DNA from: a virus
Taxonomy: Duplodnaviria; Heunggongvirae; Uroviricota; Caudoviricetes
Reading direction: 5' to 3' (one strand)
Virus record (IMG/VR): IMGVR_UViG_2609459822_000013
Coordinates: 1-64,000 of that record
DNA length: 64,000 nt
The position numbers and the translations under genes are program-made. This document shows, in pieces, positions 5,286 through 54,193 of the stretch. Under the pieces are notes generated by a model. It worked only from the letters and a program-made list of their open reading frames with translations, had not been told where the DNA came from and searched no databases. The number at the start of each line of letters is the position of its first letter. Within the stretch, counting starts at the first letter, position 1.

Positions 5286-6341
5286 TTAGGATATAGCACA
5301 ACGGAAAAACTTGCACCCCAAATAATCTTCAATGCGTTTTTGTCTTATCGCATCGCTTTTTACTTGCCGTTTGTGATGTGACTCATCAATTTCTACAGCA
5401 ACGTTATTCACAGGATCGTAGCCATCAATAAAATACTTATTGCCAGCAACATCAACAGGATATTGCCTTATTAATTTAACTCCTTTTAGTTTTTCATACA
5501 TAGTTAAGCCAGCATGTTCATAACGCTTCCTAATCATATTTTTACAATTATCTCTCATTTCTGATAATTTCGAGTCGCACTCCTTTTTTATTTCTTCAAT
5601 TACATTTTTATCGCTTTTTAATTCAATAAAGTTTTCTATGTCGTTATAATTCCCGCATTCAAAATTATTATTAAGACCTTTATTTTCACCCCATGCATGA
5701 TACTTTTCTGCCATCTTATCGCTAATATATCTTTCATACCCATAATTTGTTTTAACTATAAAATATTCAATATTTAAATCAATGGTAAACTCATCATTAT
5801 TGAGGTGTTCAGTTAAAAACGCATCTGGATCTGCAATATCGCTTGAATGGAACAACCTTACCCATAGTTTTTCTATTGATACTCCGCGAGTGACGAACAA
5901 CCATTTTTTGTACTTTTCAGCATCTTCTTTTGACACATACACAGAACATCGCCCAGGAGTATCACTCGTTTCAACATAATTGTTACACCATAAAATATAA
6001 TTATAAGCATAAGGACTATCTTTTTTGGTGTTATTTGAATATTTATTAAAGATATCTTGCAAGTCAACTAATCCACAAGATTCAATAACTGGCTTAACCC
6101 ATTTTTCATTATATTCATAATGTCTATATTTACCAGGTGTAACGAATCTAATAAACGTTATGGGTGTGATATACACATCATCACCATCAACAATAAAATC
6201 CTTGTATTCCTCAAATCCGTAAAGATCAGAGTATTTAACAAATGATTTAAGTCTATCAATTTCAAGTTCAGAAACCAGATTATTAACAGACAGTAATTGC
6301 GTGTCCTTACAATTGAGTTTCATATGATAAGTAGCAATCAT
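5286..6341 (-). CDS. AT-rich accessory protein with C-terminal restriction-endonuclease-like (Vsr/DUF559-type) domain
   Basis: 351 aa from ATG with perfect AAGGAGG RBS; strongly AT-rich codon usage; C-terminus GNKYFIDGYD...VAVEIDESHHK...DAIRQKRIEDYLGCKFFR matches the Vsr/DUF559 pattern. Confidence 0.55.
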   Translation of the reverse strand: MIATYHMKLNCKDTQLLSVNNLVSELEIDRLKSFVKYSDLYGFEEYKDFIVDGDDVYITPITFIRFVTPGKYRHYEYNEKWVKPVIESCGLVDLQDIFNKYSNNTKKDSPYAYNYILWCNNYVETSDTPGRCSVYVSKEDAEKYKKWLFVTRGVSIEKLWVRLFHSSDIADPDAFLTEHLNNDEFTIDLNIEYFIVKTNYGYERYISDKMAEKYHAWGENKGLNNNFECGNYNDIENFIELKSDKNVIEEIKKECDSKLSEMRDNCKNMIRKRYEHAGLTMYEKLKGVKLIRQYPVDVAGNKYFIDGYDPVNNVAVEIDESHHKRQVKSDAIRQKRIEDYLGCKFFRCAIS

Positions 6342-6492
6342 ATATACCTCCTTTATTAATTTTCTATATAACGCCTCAGACGAGCTACAACGCAAAAATC
6401 CCACCGCGTAACCCGTTTACAGGTTGCAGTGTCTTATTGCGCTAGAGGCGCTATCAGGTGGCTAATTTTCGATTTACAGACTGGTAGGTAGG

Positions 6493-6594
6493 TTATGGAT
6501 TAACTAGCAGATACAAACCGCCGAACAAGGCGACGTTAACAGCGATAGCCATCGCGATCGCGAAAGCCAGGGCGAACATGCGTTTACCGTCCAT
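6493..6594 (-). CDS. small hydrophobic peptide (33 aa, MDGKRMFALAFAIAMAIAVNVALFGGLYLLVNP)
   Basis: short ORF with AGAGGA RBS; single predicted transmembrane helix; between replication initiator and nuclease-like gene. Confidence 0.3.
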   Translation of the reverse strand: MDGKRMFALAFAIAMAIAVNVALFGGLYLLVNP

Positions 6595-6726
6595 TTTAAA
6601 ATCCTCTCTGTAACGCTCTCTAACGAGCTAATCGCAAAAAGGCAAGCAAGTTAGCACCACATGCGATTTAGCTCGCTGGTGAGGTTGTTTTGTGGGTAAT
6701 TTTGGATTTTTGCGGATCGTGATTGG

Positions 6727-7773
6727 TCAAAGAACGCCAGCGCGCGTATCACGTAGCGTTTTTGGTTTAAGCAGAAAATCAAGTGTCGCAGTGAAGCCAT
6801 TGCCAAAGTAAAAATCTGAAGCCGTGTTTTTGAACGTTTCGAAGTAGGCGACAAAGCCGTTAATGCTTTTGTCTTTCAGGTAGTCAGTGAACGCATAGAT
6901 CTTGCGTTCAAGATCCCGATCCAGTTCGGCAGGTGGTAACAGGCCGTCAAACGTGCTGTTAAATGCTTCCACCACGTCGGCAGCGTTTACAGTAGCTGAT
7001 AGCTTGCGCCATTGTTCAGCATCAGCCAAATACCCATCAAACCTAGTTACCCGGCAAATGTTGATAGGCTTAGGTACTCCATCACGGCTACGCCATTGGG
7101 TTAAAGCCCACTCAATTACTAACGTGATCTCATTCTCCGTATACGCTTTACATGTTTTTGTTTCTGTCAGTAGTTCTACGAATGGCTTAGCATCACGACA
7201 TTTGCATCCTGCCTTGTCGTTGTAGAAGGCAAGGCAACGCAATGCCGCTTCGTTTACGCCATCCTGATTGACCATTTTTTGTTCATTTTCGACAATACAC
7301 GAAGTGTATATATCTTTTTCTCTTTCTTTTTCTACTTCTAATTCATGACCCTTTCCTGACCCGGTCATGACCCTATCATGACCTTTTTGTGTTGGATTGA
7401 TTAACTTTTCTAATTTTAATTGTTCCTTCGCTGTGTTTATGGCGGCCCTGTAAGCGCTTTTAGAAGTCATTGATTGGTCCAGCCTTTTCAATAACTTTAA
7501 ACAAGTTATGTGGCCTTGAGAACATTCAAACAAACCAATTTCGATGAAGTATTTCATCATTTCTTCTATACGTTTTTCAGTAGATCCGACGTTTCGCGCA
7601 ATTATTCTTGCGTCATGTCGTAGGTCAAAAGTTAGATTGTGCTGATCTACGTCATAAGTTATTAGTTCTAGGCAATACCAATAAAGCCCGTACCCTTCCA
7701 GGCCATAATCTAACAAAACGTTTTGAAGTTTTTCATCGCGGTTCGCATCGCTGTCATGCTTAAACCACTTCAT
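6727..7773 (-). CDS. phage replication initiation protein (DUF4373-type N-terminus)
   Basis: 348 aa; N-terminus MKWFKHDSDANRDEKLQNVLLDYGLEGYGLYWYCLELI characteristic of phage replisome organizers; GGAGGG RBS. Confidence 0.7.
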   Translation of the reverse strand: MKWFKHDSDANRDEKLQNVLLDYGLEGYGLYWYCLELITYDVDQHNLTFDLRHDARIIARNVGSTEKRIEEMMKYFIEIGLFECSQGHITCLKLLKRLDQSMTSKSAYRAAINTAKEQLKLEKLINPTQKGHDRVMTGSGKGHELEVEKEREKDIYTSCIVENEQKMVNQDGVNEAALRCLAFYNDKAGCKCRDAKPFVELLTETKTCKAYTENEITLVIEWALTQWRSRDGVPKPINICRVTRFDGYLADAEQWRKLSATVNAADVVEAFNSTFDGLLPPAELDRDLERKIYAFTDYLKDKSINGFVAYFETFKNTASDFYFGNGFTATLDFLLKPKTLRDTRAGVL

Positions 7774-7776
7774 AGA

Positions 7777-8034
7777 TCATCCCTCCGGCAACATCACTAC
7801 ATAGACATCACTGAATGCATCAAGACGACAAACAAATCCTTTATCCATTAACGCGGCGAAGGCATCATGTACCGTATGAACAGGAAGTTCACACATTGCG
7901 GCTACTTCTTTGCGTGATGCATCATGTACCCGTCCTTTGTTATCTGCCTTTTCAGCCAGAGCCATTAAGACAAGTTTTTGAATCGGGCTGTTAAGTTTTA
8001 CGTTCCATACTTCATTCATCATGTGCATACTCAT
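7777..8034 (-). CDS. early HTH regulator in Cro position (85 aa)
   Basis: divergent from the CI-like gene; start chosen at ATG with AGGAGA RBS; HTH-like segment SRKEVAAMCELPVHTVHDAFAALMDKG. Confidence 0.5.
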   Translation of the reverse strand: MSMHMMNEVWNVKLNSPIQKLVLMALAEKADNKGRVHDASRKEVAAMCELPVHTVHDAFAALMDKGFVCRLDAFSDVYVVMLPEG

Positions 8035-8253
8035 CGTGTTTTCTCCTATGGTTAGAGTGAACGCGCGGGCGGGCATCCCATTAGCATTAGATAGCAGTGA
8101 CTGACCGCTCAACAGATCCCGCCGTTGCGTGATATTTGTTTTTCGCTTCGCAGCGACACCGGATTTTTAAAGAGCTTAAGGTAAGTGCCTTTTTGTGCCT
8201 TCCGTTATCTTTTTCCTTGCGTCTTTGCAAGTATGGCCTTACCTTGTCTGCAA

Positions 8254-8269
8254 GTTTACAAAATGGAAT
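8254..8269 (+). repeat. dispersed motif copy GTTTACAAAATGGAAT (in CI/Cro intergenic region)
   Basis: 16/16 identical to the copy at 3988-4003. Confidence 0.6.
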
Positions 8270-8339
8270 TTTAAGATCAAGGCTTAAAATACACGTTTTG
8301 TGACTTGCATCAAACTTTTTGAGGTTATAGGGTAGCGAC

Positions 8340-8987
8340 ATGAAAACAAAATGGTATGACTTAGCAAAGCAGCTCATGCGGGCGCAGGGCATGAGCCAGG
8401 ATTCACTAGCGGATCGCATGGGGATAACTAAAGGCGGTCTGTCACACTGGCTGAACGGTCGCCGCGAGCCAAATCTTGAAGATATTGCGCGGATTATGCG
8501 AGAGCTTGGTCGTCGGCAGTTCACTGTTACACATGATGGTATGGTCATTGATGATTCTGTTTCTAATACACTTCAGGCCGTGCCGCCGCGTGATTTAGGT
8601 AGTTACCCGGTTATTGACTGGAAGGACACAGTAAACAATATGGATGACGCAAGGCGTTCAGCATTACGACACGTTACGACTAGCGTTATTTGTTCAGATG
8701 ACAGTTACTGGCTGGTTGCCAAAGGTGAATCAATGAACGCGCCGCAGGGGTTGAGCATCCCGGCGGGGACGATGATACTTGTGGACCCGCACGCGCCAGC
8801 TATTGACGGCAAACTGGTTATAGCCCAGCTTGAGGAAGGGCAGATACCGACGTTTAAACAGTTGATTATTGATGGAGGTCAAAGGCTTTTACGTTCGCTC
8901 AATCCGCTGTATCCGCCAATCCCTATGAATCCAGAATCAAAAATTATAGGCGTGGTGGTTGATGCGAAGATCGTAAACCTGCCATAA
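8340..8987 (+). CDS. CI-type phage repressor (HTH + S24 LexA-like peptidase)
   Basis: 215 aa; N-terminal HTH (QDSLADRMGITKGGLSHWLNGRREP); C-terminal S24 motifs (AKGESMNAP...GTMILVDP). Confidence 0.85.
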   Translation: MKTKWYDLAKQLMRAQGMSQDSLADRMGITKGGLSHWLNGRREPNLEDIARIMRELGRRQFTVTHDGMVIDDSVSNTLQAVPPRDLGSYPVIDWKDTVNNMDDARRSALRHVTTSVICSDDSYWLVAKGESMNAPQGLSIPAGTMILVDPHAPAIDGKLVIAQLEEGQIPTFKQLIIDGGQRLLRSLNPLYPPIPMNPESKIIGVVVDAKIVNLP

Positions 8988-8992
8988 ACATG

Positions 8993-9018
8993 AGCCGCCG
9001 GATGGCGGCTTTTCTTTG
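8993..9018 (+). terminator. Rho-independent terminator after repressor gene
   Basis: hairpin AGCCGCCGGATGGCGGCT followed by T-run. Confidence 0.6.
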
Positions 9019-9096
9019 CCTAAAGAACACCAAAACGTAAACAGAAAACGTTACTTATTGTTTAAATATCAATAGCATATAAAATATTTTAAAAAA

Positions 9097-9110
9097 GTAT
9101 ACAAAATGGA
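9097..9110 (+). repeat. dispersed motif copy GTATACAAAATGGA abutting pL-like -35
   Basis: core ACAAAATGGA; immediately upstream of TTGACT. Confidence 0.55.
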
Positions 9111-9139
9111 TTGACTCGATGTTTTACGGGGCGTATATT
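9111..9139 (+). promoter_or_regulatory. candidate sigma70 promoter (pL-like): TTGACT-N17-TATATT
   Basis: near-consensus -35/-10 with 17 bp spacer downstream of repressor terminator and upstream of the nut-like site. Confidence 0.4.
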
Positions 9140-9393
9140 GCGAGTCAAAGGAAGGGCGCAGGTAACAAAAGCAACTTCCTGGCACTTTAAAAATCAGGCT
9201 TAACACCTTGTCAACCGTGGAGTAACTCCCCGATGGGGGACCGAAAGCGGCACTGATAACAAGGCGCATGGGGTGTTTAAAGCGTTACATCCCCCACGAA
9301 ACCGCACGCAAGGCGACGAGTCAGCTTGCTTGGAGTGAGCAAGGTCACGCCGGGAACGGCGATGATTGCGGGATTAGTTGCAAGATGTTAAGC

Positions 9394-9431
9394 CGCTCAT
9401 TAACAATCTGGTCAGCCGCTGGAAGTGCGGC
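9394..9431 (+). promoter_or_regulatory. nutL-like site: boxA-like CGCTCATTAACAA plus boxB-like hairpin GCCGC-TGGAAGT-GCGGC
   Basis: boxA closely resembles the recalled boxA consensus; 5 bp stem hairpin 8 nt downstream; ~55 nt upstream of the N-like gene. Confidence 0.5.
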
Positions 9432-9487
9432 AATTAACGAAGATGATTTTTTATTAAGTATCATCAAGGATATACGGAGATCAGATT

Positions 9488-9778
9488 ATGAGCGTTACAA
9501 TTATATATGGTAAATGTGATAGCAAAATGAATGCCAGGGAACGCAGAAGGATAAAAAGAGAAAACGAAAGAAAATCATCACCTGCAATCAATAAAACAGA
9601 CAATGTGGATAAAGCTATTCGATTTGCAAACGAGGAAAGATGCAAACCGAATGGCATTAAAGAGCATCGCAAAGGTGCGGCAAAATGGTATGCGGAAAAC
9701 GAAAGCGGCAATTACTACCACGCAACACAACCGCGTAGTCTAGGGGAAAAACCCCTGGATAAAGTACGCTACAGATAA
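9488..9778 (+). CDS. N-type transcription antiterminator (P22 gp24-like)
   Basis: 96 aa; N-terminus MSVTIIYGKCDSKMNARERRRIKRENERK resembles recalled P22 gene 24 N-terminus and carries an arginine-rich motif; ACGGAG RBS. Confidence 0.65.
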   Translation: MSVTIIYGKCDSKMNARERRRIKRENERKSSPAINKTDNVDKAIRFANEERCKPNGIKEHRKGAAKWYAENESGNYYHATQPRSLGEKPLDKVRYR

Positions 9779-9927
9779 TACAAAATGTAAACTTTCAAAG
9801 GTGACATTATGGTTGTTCAGGCGCTTCAATTCAAACTGGCAGTAGCGGAAATGCTTCACGATGCCGAAATGTGGAGCGCCGCGAATAAAGCCTTATACAT
9901 AGTGTTAACAGCACGGGAGATTAAATA

Positions 9928-10569
9928 GTGAAAACAGAGTTACATAAAAAGCTATGGGCGATTCAGCAAACGCTGAACGCGCCGAAAAATCAGCGTAATA
10001 ATTTTGGTGGATATAATTACAGGTCGGCGGAGGATATTTTAGAGGCGGTTAAACCACTGCTTCAAAATATCACGCTGACTGTTAGTGATGAAATTGTCCT
10101 GATCGGCAATCGCTATTATGTGAAAGCAACGGCGACGCTAAGCGACGGTGAAGACGTAATAGCGGTAACTGCTTATGCCAGGGAGGAAGAAAGCAAGAAG
10201 GGTATGGACGCCAGCCAGCTAACAGGAGCAACATCAAGTTACGCGCGTAAATATGCTTTGAACGGTTTATTCTGTATAGATGATGCTCGCGATCCTGATA
10301 CTGATGCTTACGCGAAGCAGACAGGCCAGCAGCCGCGACAACAGAAAAACCCACCAAAACAACAACCGCAGCAGAAGAAAGCGCCGCCAAATCCTGATGA
10401 AGTGTTAGCACGTTTCTGTGATGCAGCAGCGAAAGCGCAGGACGCTAACAAGCTGCGTGAAATATTTGGCAAATGCTGGAAATTACTACCGGAAGGATCG
10501 GAGCATCGAATCAAGGCAAAAGATGTTTATGACATCCGGGTAGCAGAGCTTAACGGGGAGATGGGTTAA
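9928..10569 (+). CDS. erf: Erf-family single-strand annealing recombinase
   Basis: 213 aa; ERF signature GGYNYRSAEDILEAVKPLL; GTG start with GGGAGA RBS. Confidence 0.8.
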   Translation: MKTELHKKLWAIQQTLNAPKNQRNNFGGYNYRSAEDILEAVKPLLQNITLTVSDEIVLIGNRYYVKATATLSDGEDVIAVTAYAREEESKKGMDASQLTGATSSYARKYALNGLFCIDDARDPDTDAYAKQTGQQPRQQKNPPKQQPQQKKAPPNPDEVLARFCDAAAKAQDANKLREIFGKCWKLLPEGSEHRIKAKDVYDIRVAELNGEMG

Positions 10570-10988
10570 TGAGTTTAAATTCAATCACGCTGGGCGGGAA
10601 TATCGGTAATGATATGGAGGTTCGCTACACACAAAACGGGAAAGCGATTGGTAGTTTTCCGTTAGCTGTAACGAATGGCTACGGCGATAATAAGCGGACA
10701 ATGTGGGTCACTTGCCTTGTATTTGGTGAGCGTGCGGAAAAATTAGCGCCACATATCCGCAAGGGTGGAAAAATAGTGGTAAACGGTCGCTTGGATGTTC
10801 GGCAATATGACCGGAACGACGGCACGAAGGGAACGGCGGTAGAAGTGGCGGTTAACGAATTCGAATTTATGAACGTTAACCAACAGGGCCAGCAGCAAGG
10901 CCAGCAGCAGAAAGCGCCACCGCCGCAGCAGAATAACAACGGGAATAATCCGCCTCCGATGGACTTCGACGACGATATTCCTTTTTAG
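10569..10988 (+). CDS. ssb: single-stranded DNA-binding protein
   Basis: 139 aa; OB-fold SSB N-terminus, Q/G-rich linker, acidic C-terminal tail DFDDDIPF. Confidence 0.9.
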   Translation: MSLNSITLGGNIGNDMEVRYTQNGKAIGSFPLAVTNGYGDNKRTMWVTCLVFGERAEKLAPHIRKGGKIVVNGRLDVRQYDRNDGTKGTAVEVAVNEFEFMNVNQQGQQQGQQQKAPPPQQNNNGNNPPPMDFDDDIPF

Positions 10989-11064
10989 AATCAATGCGTT
11001 AGCTATGAGTGATTATCTAAAACCGCCACCGCAACCACGAACAAAAGAGCAAGTATTAAAAGAA

Positions 11065-11097
11065 GCCCGCGATCAAATCGATCGCGGGCTTTTTTTA
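11065..11097 (+). terminator. strong Rho-independent terminator downstream of ssb
   Basis: 10 bp perfect stem GCCCGCGATC/GATCGCGGGC followed by T7 run. Confidence 0.65.
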
Positions 11098-11295
11098 TGC
11101 GGCACGGCAGCGGATCGAATGGCGAAAAGATTTAGTGACCTGTACGCGAAGCAAATCTGGTTTGACAACTGGCGAGCGAGTTCTTACCCGCTACAGAAAA
11201 CTGATGATATGCAGTGGCCTGAATATGTTGATCCACGAATGCGCAAATATCGCGGGCGTATGGGCAAGGTTATTAACGATTAATGAGGTATTACC

Positions 11296-11547
11296 ATGAC
11301 AGCTACAACATTAAGCGAAAATAACGGGCGCGGTTTTCAGGGGACTGCGGAAACCTCAGACGATGGTGATGTATTTGTCGAATTCGGTGGCGGTAACTAT
11401 GAATTCGAAACGTCGGCGGGCTGGCACGATAAATGGCCTTTCCCGACGCGCAAGGAATTAAGCGATCGAAAAACATTTGGCGAAGATGCCGAACGCCTGG
11501 CGAATAATAAATGGATGGATAAATTTATTGCGGAGGCTGAAAAATGA
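11296..11547 (+). CDS. hypothetical protein
   Basis: 83 aa ORF with RBS. Confidence 0.45.
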   Translation: MTATTLSENNGRGFQGTAETSDDGDVFVEFGGGNYEFETSAGWHDKWPFPTRKELSDRKTFGEDAERLANNKWMDKFIAEAEK

Positions 11548-11657
11548 GTTTTGCAAAAATTGCAGCATTGGCTGCGGCGGTGGCGATCGCGGCGCTATAT
11601 CTTAGCTTATCGCTTTATATTACGGTGGCGATCATCAAGCTGATTACAACTATGTGA
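11544..11657 (+). CDS. small membrane peptide (37 aa)
   Basis: ATGA overlap with upstream stop; Ala/Ile-rich single TM helix (MSFAKIAALAAAVAIAALYLSLSLYITVAIIKLITTM). Confidence 0.35.
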   Translation: MSFAKIAALAAAVAIAALYLSLSLYITVAIIKLITTM

Positions 11658-11664
11658 GGCAATC

Positions 11665-11787
11665 ATGAGAGTCAGTAAGGATATTGTGACGGTCGCGTTT
11701 TGCGTTATTTGTTTCCTGTTTGCGGTTGTGCTTTGTGGCGCACTTGCGGCAGTGATTAGCTTTATTGGTAAGGGGGTGATGTTATGA
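11665..11787 (+). CDS. small membrane peptide (40 aa)
   Basis: MRVSKDIVTVAFCVICFLFAVVLCGALAAVISFIGKGVML; stop overlaps next start (ATGA). Confidence 0.35.
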   Translation: MRVSKDIVTVAFCVICFLFAVVLCGALAAVISFIGKGVML

Positions 11788-12056
11788 CTCTGTGGGATGC
11801 AAAAGAAGGTGATCTCGTTGTCTTGCCAGCATATCGTAGTGATCTCGGGCTGGTCGTACTGAATAAAACATGTAGCGACATTCAACGCCCGATCCTGGTT
11901 AGATACTTAGACGGCACGATGATCGAACCGCGTTTCTTCGACAAAGTTGAACTGAAGGCCCGCAATGTTCGCGTTAAGCCTTTCCGGGCTTATGTTGAAA
12001 ATCACTGGCGTAAATTGTTCGCCGGACTGAATGGGATGTTCGGCGTATGGCTATAA
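11784..12056 (+). CDS. hypothetical protein
   Basis: 90 aa ORF, coupled in operon. Confidence 0.45.
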   Translation: MTLWDAKEGDLVVLPAYRSDLGLVVLNKTCSDIQRPILVRYLDGTMIEPRFFDKVELKARNVRVKPFRAYVENHWRKLFAGLNGMFGVWL

Positions 12057-12238
12057 AATTAGTGAAGGTTAAACACCTGAAAGGCGGTGAAAGATTAATG
12101 TCATGGTGGGGACATGAATTTATTGCTACTGCCTTTCATTTCGGCCTAGGTGGTCAAGTAACAATATTTGATGAAGATTACGACGAGGTGGGGCAATGGC
12201 ATCTTGAGCAATATGTCGAGGTGTTAAATGAAAATTAA
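12047..12238 (+). CDS. hypothetical protein
   Basis: 63 aa ORF, overlapping start/stop. Confidence 0.4.
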   Translation: MAIKLVKVKHLKGGERLMSWWGHEFIATAFHFGLGGQVTIFDEDYDEVGQWHLEQYVEVLNEN

Positions 12239-12560
12239 ATTCCACAAAGCGTATGACGCTAACACAAACAAGCTATCACTATTTATCGAATTCGAACGCC
12301 GGATCGTGGTAGCGCCTTGGTCGCGGCGCTTTAATGACGCCGCCGGATGTAGACAATTCGCGGTCGATATGCTGTTACGCGGCTGCGGCCTTATGCGTCC
12401 GCTATCTGATTTAAAACGAATGATGCCGGGATCGTTCGGTCAGATTGATGAAATAGAAATAAGCCCGGAAGAACTGAAACGTGAGCGTGATTTATTCCTT
12501 TCAAGCGAAGGAAACCCGTTTAATTCAGAAACTGAAATGAAATGGCATCATCCACTATAA
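12228..12560 (+). CDS. hypothetical protein
   Basis: 110 aa ORF. Confidence 0.45.
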   Translation: MKIKFHKAYDANTNKLSLFIEFERRIVVAPWSRRFNDAAGCRQFAVDMLLRGCGLMRPLSDLKRMMPGSFGQIDEIEISPEELKRERDLFLSSEGNPFNSETEMKWHHPL

Positions 12561-13510: not shown

Positions 13511-13608
13511 TTATGGACGACACATTGTTTTATATGTGCTGTTGCTGGGGTTTTATTGCCTTATGTCTGTTTATCAGGTGGTTTATTGAATACCATATGA
13601 GGTGAGGC

Positions 13609-14225: not shown

Positions 14226-14459
14226 ATGGCTTTATTTAACCTGTCAGAGCCGCAATTTAACGCCGTAAAGACTGCCGCCCGCGCCGCGCTTTCGGCCTGC
14301 AAAGCGGAAGTAGAAAAGAACGGCTACAGCGATAAAGCCACGCGGCTGATATTAGATAAGCATTATCGCAAGGTCGCCCCGCTAATCAGTATTGAGCGTT
14401 TTGTGTGGTTGGTGGGGTATCTGAATAACCGCTGGGGAACAGATCAGGATTATTTCTAA
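14226..14459 (+). CDS. hypothetical protein (77 aa)
   Basis: ORF with internal ATG start after stop of upstream gene. Confidence 0.4.
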   Translation: MALFNLSEPQFNAVKTAARAALSACKAEVEKNGYSDKATRLILDKHYRKVAPLISIERFVWLVGYLNNRWGTDQDYF

Positions 14460-54071: not shown

Positions 54072-54193
54072 GCAGGTGAATGCAACGTCAAGCGATGGGC
54101 GTTGCGCTCCATATTGTCTTACTTCCTTTTTTGAATTACTGCATAGCACAATTGATTCGTACGACGCCGACTTTGATGAGTCGGCTTTTTTTT
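54072..54193 (+). ncRNA. fnrS: FnrS small regulatory RNA
   Basis: recalled FnrS sequence (GCAGGTGAATGCAACGTCAAGCGATGGGCG...) and zntB-dbpA intergenic location; ends in hairpin GCCGACTTTGATGAGTCGGC + T9. Confidence 0.75.

Follow-up and report, generated by a model that had tools for sequence, protein, structure and literature searches.

The stretch of viral DNA analysed here (hereafter the window) comprises positions 1 to 64,000 of the IMG/VR record IMGVR_UViG_2609459822_000013 (Caudoviricetes) and, to judge from its similarity to sequenced phages, carries an mEpimmI (mEp021-like) prophage of Escherichia coli; positions 6300-12100 share 87-92% identity with mEp021, mEp010, mEp013, mEp044, mEp515, mEp554, and MagusPhagus. 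In the early region of this prophage we describe four short open reading frames (ORFs) for hydrophobic peptides, designated A to D. ORFs A, B, and C had been pointed out in a preliminary description of the same DNA, and all three were found at the coordinates, on the strands, and with the lengths given there. ORF D belongs to the early operon of B and C and lies outside the interval covered by that description. The features are as follows.

6493-6594, minus strand: ORF A, 33 amino acids (aa), MDGKRMFALAFAIAMAIAVNVALFGGLYLLVNP; predicted single-helix membrane peptide.
6602-6608, minus strand: Shine-Dalgarno (SD) sequence GAGAGGA of ORF A, 7 nucleotides (nt) 5' of the ATG.
11532-11536, plus strand: SD sequence GGAGG of ORF B, 7 nt 5' of the ATG and inside the end of the upstream gene; invariant in eight aligned phages.
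11544-11657, plus strand: ORF B, 37 aa, MSFAKIAALAAAVAIAALYLSLSLYITVAIIKLITTM; predicted single-helix membrane peptide.
11656-11659, plus strand: SD core GAGG of ORF C, 5 nt 5' of the ATG, overlapping the ORF B stop.
11665-11787, plus strand: ORF C, 40 aa, MRVSKDIVTVAFCVICFLFAVVLCGALAAVISFIGKGVML; predicted single-helix membrane peptide.
13513-13605, plus strand: ORF D, 30 aa, MDDTLFYMCCCWGFIALCLFIRWFIEYHMR; hydrophobic mini-ORF.

A plausible ribosome-binding site or translational coupling had been proposed for each of A, B, and C; an SD sequence precedes all three, and ATGA-type overlaps occur at B and C. The ATG of ORF B overlaps the stop codon (TGA) of the upstream 83-aa gene, ORF C begins 7 nt past the ORF B stop, and the TGA of ORF C overlaps the ATG of a 90-aa gene at 11784. 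At the SD site of ORF C, ATGTGAGG is invariant in the eight aligned phages, while the SD motif of ORF A is kept in at least 90% of 38 distinct relatives. The term "stand-alone", previously applied to these ORFs, suits ORF A, which lies alone in a 322-nt spacer that follows the initiator gene and is upstream of a hypervariable gene slot. It does not suit B and C, an adjacent pair in a tightly packed operon: because their starts and stops overlap or abut those of their neighbours, they are links in a chain of abutting genes that extends from 11296 to 12560.

The retention of these frames was followed in phage records and in IMG/VR contigs, the latter collected via neighbouring genes, so that the state of the mini-ORFs had no influence on the choice. 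ORF A is open, with its start codon and SD sequence kept, in all seven phage records that cover it (MagusPhagus included), and at the IMG/VR loci it is intact in 36 of 40. All eight aligned phages keep B and C open, and at the IMG/VR loci B is open in 32 of 33 and C in every one of the 33. The exceptions comprise three contigs in which the ATG of ORF A is replaced by ATT, one locus with a different module in place of A, and one locus (L016) with a 1-nt deletion in an A5 run of ORF B. The three ATT contigs (L067, L068, and L073) represent a single lineage, in which the frame lies about 137 nt after the initiator and carries two amino-acid changes in the helix; this lineage may reflect reduced expression or early decay of ORF A. 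Lack of conservation in homologous phages had been named as an outcome that would speak against the peptides, whereas the ORFs, their starts, and their SD sequences are kept in the mEp021 group, in MagusPhagus, and in dozens of IMG/VR contigs. Synteny is kept as well: A lies about 133 nt past the initiator, and B and C lie between the 83-aa gene (74 aa in most relatives) and the 90-aa gene. In a public collection, 177 blocks have a gene call with the exact sequence of ORF A, in each case at about this distance past the initiator gene.

The peptides of relatives are 85-100% identical for A, 76-97% for B, 59-95% for C, and 83-100% for D, the last with synonymous nucleotide differences. A 93-nt coding sequence is annotated at the place equivalent to ORF D in mEp515, mEp013, and MagusPhagus, and GAGG precedes each. 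The most divergent allele type is that of MagusPhagus, with 67% nucleotide identity over the B-C stretch; alleles of this type lack 6 nt of B and 3 nt of C without a change of frame, and indels between allele types are multiples of 3. A third allele type of ORF B, MSMVKIAALAAAFVIGVIYITASFYVAVFIAELIVALLG, has half of its residues changed and retains the hydrophobic helix.

The window holds 19 ATG-initiated ORFs of 25-60 aa with a transmembrane (TM)-like segment, as against 3.3 +/- 1.8 in 100 dinucleotide shuffles, and five ORFs of the same class with a strict SD sequence, as against 0.17 +/- 0.45. Off-frame ORFs in real coding DNA make shuffles an unfair null, and the decisive evidence is therefore comparative. 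The ratio of nonsynonymous to synonymous change (dN/dS) was obtained from Nei-Gojobori counts pooled over all pairs. For the named frame in the phage set it is 0.09 for A, 0.16 for B, and 0.33 for C, while the other two same-strand frames give 0.9-2.6 (2.4-2.6 for ORF A). Among 25-28 distinct alleles the values are 0.15, 0.20, and 0.34, respectively, and the accepted 90-aa neighbour gene gives 0.20. In the same alleles the variable columns fall at codon positions 1, 2, and 3 in numbers of 11, 9, and 25 for A, 23, 18, and 35 for B, and 21, 22, and 35 for C. Judging from these patterns of substitution, A, B, and C are very probably real protein-coding genes under purifying selection.

The preliminary description had taken the products to be single-helix peptides, and predictions agree with it. 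Each of A, B, and C has a 5- or 6-residue N-terminus with a conserved Lys followed by 26-29 uncharged, strongly hydrophobic residues, with Kyte-Doolittle maxima over 19 residues of 2.3-3.0. AlphaFold, given the family alignments, predicts one continuous helix for ORF A (residues 3-31; predicted local distance difference test, pLDDT, 94) and for ORF C (residues 3-39; pLDDT 88). A, B, and C are probably inserted in a membrane. The invariant residues of ORF A are the AxxxA stripes A8-A12-A16 and A10-A14-A18, the mid-helix Asn20, and F24-G25-G26 (the FGG motif). AxxxA stripes, a mid-helix Asn, and FGG are typical of self-associating helices in the packing of TM segments. The conserved pattern suggests that ORF A may form a helix of this kind. 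Small membrane peptides had also been described as a recurring theme of the prophage, and ORF D and an array of putative single-TM peptides at about 25977-26731, next to the terminase region, agree with that description. A, B, C, and the array peptides were also considered as possible paralogues, which was rejected; the sole match, between A and B (50% over 22 aa, E 0.008 against a very small database), is driven by composition.

Taken as a whole, A to D are likely to be lineage-restricted genes of the mEpimmI group that encode inner-membrane peptides, for which host-takeover effectors would be the most likely role. Several points weigh against this interpretation. The dN/dS values are pooled counts over pairs of related, phylogenetically non-independent sequences and do not amount to a phylogenetic test. 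Neither A nor B can be indispensable, because three contigs have ATT at the start of A and one has a frameshift in B. The noncoding flanks of ORF A are about as conserved as the ORF and the divergence is modest; since the flanks are equally conserved, it is the frame-specific pattern, not overall identity, that carries the argument for ORF A. A hairpin in ORF B coincides with the predicted terminator TERM_2 of the mEp021 GenBank record, and the paper on the mEpimmI group (PMC11893012) does not mention these peptides. The specific role of an early membrane-acting host-takeover effector, drawn from genomic context and residue patterns only, is itself tentative and open to considerable doubt.

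Two of these points would be expected if the frames were untranslated and the conservation reflected cis-acting DNA or RNA, that is, a terminator hairpin in B and an origin or regulatory repeats around A. The spacer of ORF A, as conserved as the ORF, contains a 12-nt direct repeat on both sides of the ORF and a 20-nt motif that recurs, both flanks of the ORF fold better than shuffles (z -2.8 and -3.1 in single-sequence folds), and a GC-rich hairpin is found in codons 7-13 of many ORF B alleles at the position of the mEp021 terminator. However, a cis-acting role alone leaves unexplained the third-position-biased variation, the dN/dS of 0.1-0.3 in the named frame only, and the in-frame indels, as well as the retention of start, stop, and SD sequence in nearly all relatives. 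Covariation lends little support to structures in the flanks, as consensus folds of 38 sequences around ORF A are weak, at -9 kcal/mol, and contain hardly any compensatory changes. In the Magus-type allele the ORF B hairpin is displaced to another place and the ORF persists; the window copy of the hairpin has no U-run on the plus strand and the ORF is kept there as well. Moreover, a terminator within a coding region is compatible with a real gene. We consider this cis-acting explanation very improbable.

The spacer of ORF A has some further features of its own. The 12-nt direct repeat AAAATTAsCCAC lies at 6458-6469 and 6692-6703 on the minus strand, and these are the sole two exact copies in the window. 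In one IMG/VR locus (L067, 2554-3058), the entire ORF-A unit is duplicated in tandem with the junction at this repeat. The motif TAGCTCGTTAGAGAGCGTTA at 6611-6630 (minus strand) stands about 17 nt upstream of the ORF A ATG, immediately 5' of the SD sequence, and a degenerate copy, TAGCTCGTCTGAGGCGTTA, stands at about 6370-6388 (minus strand), upstream of the SD sequence of the next gene. The motif pair may represent a shared regulatory element. The reverse complement of TAGCTCGTTAGAGAGCGTTA is boxA-like, but on the non-transcribed strand. The spacer has no strict match to the DnaA box TTWTNCACA.

In the window, the hairpin of ORF B is GCAGC-ATTG-GCTGC at 11562-11575 (codons 7-11). In other alleles it is built from different bases, with the stems GCCGC/GCGGC, GCGGC/GCCGC, and GCCGCA/TGCGGC, and AATTTTTGC follows the hairpin on the minus strand. 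The hairpin may act as a terminator inside the coding sequence, or it may simply result from stretches of Ala codons. The opposite strand at B and C carries one further ORF that passes the 60-aa cut-off.

11607-11885, minus strand: antisense ORF of 92 aa with a TTG start, covering ORFs B and C as well as the beginning of the 90-aa gene.

This ORF was considered as a real gene and rejected. Because it is broken in divergent relatives, we regard it as a shadow of B and C.

The claim that such peptides are systematically missed holds for RefSeq and its PGAP annotation, where nothing is annotated under ORF A in 26 of 26 E. coli genomes. At the three RefSeq loci inspected for the other two ORFs, B is annotated in none and C in one (UMNK88, WP_000868625.1), and feature counts at other RefSeq loci fit B and C being mostly unannotated. 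All three are also unannotated in the mEp021 reference record, which places its predicted terminator inside B. The claim does not hold for the PHANOTATE-annotated mEp records and the pharokka-annotated MagusPhagus, where A, B, and C each appear as a "hypothetical protein", nor for some GenBank E. coli records, where they appear likewise.

Gene callers elsewhere predict these peptides on hundreds of contigs. In a word-indexed database of 5.8 billion proteins, for which A and B were searched as padded queries, ORF A has 17 clusters at 85-100% identity (one of them on 456 contigs), ORF B has 11 clusters, and ORF C has 31 clusters at 76-95% identity; all names on these relatives are E. coli or Caudoviricetes. 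A profile of ORF B retrieved four proteins only from 1.84 billion cluster representatives, two of them frame-shifted variants, and tblastn against 50,697 phage records found relatives only in the mEp group and MagusPhagus. Among genomes sampled at one per species, a degenerate back-translated pattern of the ORF A core gave 10 matches, all attributable to chance: nine fall in unrelated, longer frames, the tenth falls in a frame of 37 codons in a metagenome-assembled genome of Bacteroidota, and none is ORF-A-like outside the motif. Distant homologues of the initiator (31-69% identity, loci L086-L120) have no hydrophobic mini-ORF downstream. Scans of Pfam, PHROGs v4, NCBIfam, and PADLOC gave no family for A, B, or C at E <= 0.1, and Rfam gave no family at these loci on either strand. 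The Pfam Lambda_Kil and cIII models match none of the three, and the Kil-like match in this region belongs to the separate ORF at 9809-9928. Within the reach of these searches, A, B, and C are lineage-restricted ORFan genes.

In the mEpimmI group itself, the orthologues are mEp515_14, _31, and _32, mEp010_14, _29, and _30, MagusPhagus CDS0113 and CDS0112, and, for C in E. coli, WP_000868625.1. Compared with A, B, and C they have the same position, a length within 0-2 codons, 59-100% peptide identity, and the same SD sequence and coupling, and they are best described as allelic variants; none of them is named or placed in a family.

The genomic setting of the four ORFs is given by the following genes.

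5286-6341, minus strand: gene downstream of ORF A, whose C-terminal part matches a model for type II methyl-directed restriction enzymes (PADLOC, E 1.3e-8).
6727-7773, minus strand: replication-initiator gene, followed by the 322-nt spacer with ORF A.
8340-8987, plus strand: cI-like repressor, the reference point for gene order.
9488-9778, plus strand: N-like antiterminator Gp17.
9809-9928, plus strand: 39-aa Kil-like ORF, flanked by gp17 and erf, that weakly matches Lambda_Kil.
From 11784, plus strand: 90-aa gene whose ATG overlaps the ORF C stop.
About 14226-14459, plus strand: Ipe homologue (mEp021 ORF4, GenBank JQ072023), about 2.5 kb downstream in the early operon.

Leftward from the repressor, a divergent cro-like gene, the initiator, ORF A, the variable slot, a 372-aa protein, and the DnaB helicase follow one another. 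Rightward, the order is Gp17, the Kil-like ORF, Erf, SSB, Abc2, the 83-aa gene, B, C, and the 90-aa gene, with Ipe and Dam further on. The slot at 5286-6341 varies among relatives, in which anti-repressor-like, zinc-ribbon, or IS1-disrupted genes occur, and it has the appearance of a hotspot for variable accessory or defence genes within the replication module. For the 90-aa gene, no relative was found in the genome contigs searched. The Kil-like ORF matches Lambda_Kil at E 2e-4 in Pfam (below the gathering score) and the PHROG Kil family at E 1.4e-3, and a Kil-like protein has been mentioned for the mEpimmI group (PMC11893012). The same study describes mEpimmI phages as a Nus-dependent, non-lambdoid group that is common in human faeces, and reports them to be as frequent as lambdoid phages among human faecal isolates. 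The preliminary description had spoken of a prophage, and correctly so. Rfam places FnrS at 54072-54189 and, from the rac prophage, the antitoxin RNA RalA at 58499-58677 (both plus strand), that is, at 54-58.7 kb; because of these two RNAs, the right end of the window can be assigned to the E. coli chromosome and a second, rac-type element beside the mEp-like prophage.

This setting suggests how the peptides would be made and where they would act. A to D would each provide a peptide of 30-40 residues with a short N-terminus that bears the conserved Lys and with one helix that spans the inner membrane, probably with the N-terminus inside according to the positive-inside rule. B and C would be made from the rightward, Gp17-antiterminated early operon via translational coupling to their neighbours, and A from the leftward transcript of the cro-like and replication operon, between the initiator and helicase genes. 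We infer that the peptides would be translated early in lytic growth, inserted in the inner membrane, and active there, with host membrane proteins or the membrane itself as likely targets via helix-helix contacts. The operon of B and C also encodes Ipe, a small product recorded as toxic (PMC6379469, PMC11893012). According to GenBank JQ072023 and PMC6379469, the toxicity is seen in E. coli. Ipe is also recorded to induce the haemolytic phenotype that mEp021 lysogens display. Ipe shares with B and C the early operon and its small size, but at 72-83 aa it is not a single hydrophobic helix and its sequence is unrelated to A, B, and C.

Alternatively, ORF A (or B and C) could be the toxin of a type I toxin-antitoxin system, a small membrane-depolarising peptide that an antisense RNA keeps in check and that has a role in maintaining the prophage or in abortive infection. 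Size, hydrophobicity, and a single helix fit the definition that PMC8309996 and PMC2887945 give for type I toxins (Hok/Gef, Ldr, TisB, Ibs, ShoB, ZorO), which are often prophage-borne and toxic through the inner membrane. ORF A, moreover, lies by itself in its conserved spacer, its flanks fold stably, and type I systems are well known from prophages (PMC8621323, PMC12648545); RalA does occur in the window, but within the neighbouring rac element. On the other hand, scans with consensus, Rfam, and Pfam models found neither an antisense RNA gene or promoter nor a family match for A-C. Opposite A or B and C, no antisense promoter reaches at least 9 of 12 consensus matches, and the best relaxed candidates have 8 of 12 with poor -10 boxes, although weak or atypical promoters may escape such a consensus scan. 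No Rfam antitoxin family is matched at E <= 10 and no Pfam or NCBIfam toxin family at E <= 1 (Hok_Gef, Ldr, TisB, Ibs, Fst, and others). No promoter was found for ORF A itself, its 5' leader has no conserved pairing that would sequester the SD sequence, and B and C are internal operon genes with translational coupling. A type I system at these loci is accordingly improbable in our view.

Small inner-membrane exclusion proteins such as T4 Imm and HK97 gp15 are common in phages. A, B, and C could be superinfection-exclusion or lysogenic-conversion peptides that block DNA entry by competing phages, and the mEpimmI group does invest in exclusion, through Lpp lipoproteins (PMC11893012). Exclusion in the lysogen, however, is hard to reconcile with the position of A, B, and C in operons that are expected to be repressed there (B and C below Gp17 antitermination, A below the cro-like gene), and consensus scans found no promoter of their own for any of them. 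Nor do the peptides resemble lipoproteins, as the lipobox [LVI][ASTVI][GAS]C is absent in A and B, and the residues before the Cys positions of C are F, I, and L rather than G, A, or S. Exclusion during lytic growth is possible; for exclusion or conversion in general, we would give only a small chance.

It is also conceivable that A, B, and C are holins, antiholins, or accessories of lysis timing, as they are predicted single-TM peptides and the phage has the further array of such peptides near the terminase. Their position speaks against this. They lie at 6.5 and 11.6 kb in early operons, not in a lysis cassette with endolysin and spanin genes, and 14-19 kb from the array, and the late region with the terminase starts at about 26.7 kb. 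In addition, they are half the size of typical holins, and ORF A has no charged C-terminal tail. A function in lysis is thus extremely unlikely.

Within the preferred interpretation of A-D as early inner-membrane effectors, a bolder version is that at least one of the peptides acts as a phage "protein antibiotic" or a viroporin-like effector, with a specific essential target or a pore activity in the E. coli inner membrane. In this version, ORF A would be a candidate for a self-assembling Asn/Ala-zipper pore inside the replication module, and B and C candidates for peptides that inhibit a membrane enzyme or a defence system bound to the membrane. As a variant of it, ORF B would be dual-purpose, a coding sequence that is also a functional terminator hairpin, tuned at synonymous sites and gating the Gp17-antiterminated operon. 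We consider this version, its variant included, unlikely.

Outside phages, A-C resemble AcrZ, MgtS, MgrB, CydX, and KdpF (PMC12648545), bacterial proteins of the inner membrane that modulate larger membrane proteins; like A-C, these are no longer than 50 aa, have one hydrophobic helix with flanking basic residues and no further domain, and are often unannotated. There is no sequence relationship between the two groups, and A-C belong to phage early lytic operons whereas the AcrZ-type proteins belong to chromosomal stress regulons. Small ORFs (smORFs) of similar character have also been collected on a large scale. A catalogue of intergenic smORFs in Enterobacteriaceae (PMC11188072), which is not a family, likewise lists ORFs that are unannotated, under purifying selection, mostly hydrophobic, and free of Pfam domains. 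Against such catalogues, A-C stand as specific examples with a defined operon context. Small ORFs of phage genomes have reportedly been catalogued as well (Fremin et al. 2022, Cell Rep), and these too are said to be hydrophobic, unannotated, and under purifying selection.

That hydrophobic small ORFs are missed by length cut-offs is well documented, and the present case is a concrete, testable example of this and not a new principle. A, B, and C are present on hundreds of public E. coli contigs, yet they are omitted by RefSeq and by the reference record of mEp021. Accepting these genes corrects the gene map of the mEpimmI group and removes both an apparent noncoding gap of 236 nt and the misleading 92-aa antisense ORF. 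It also yields four further candidates, short and easy to synthesise, for phage products with a possible action on the inner membrane of bacteria.

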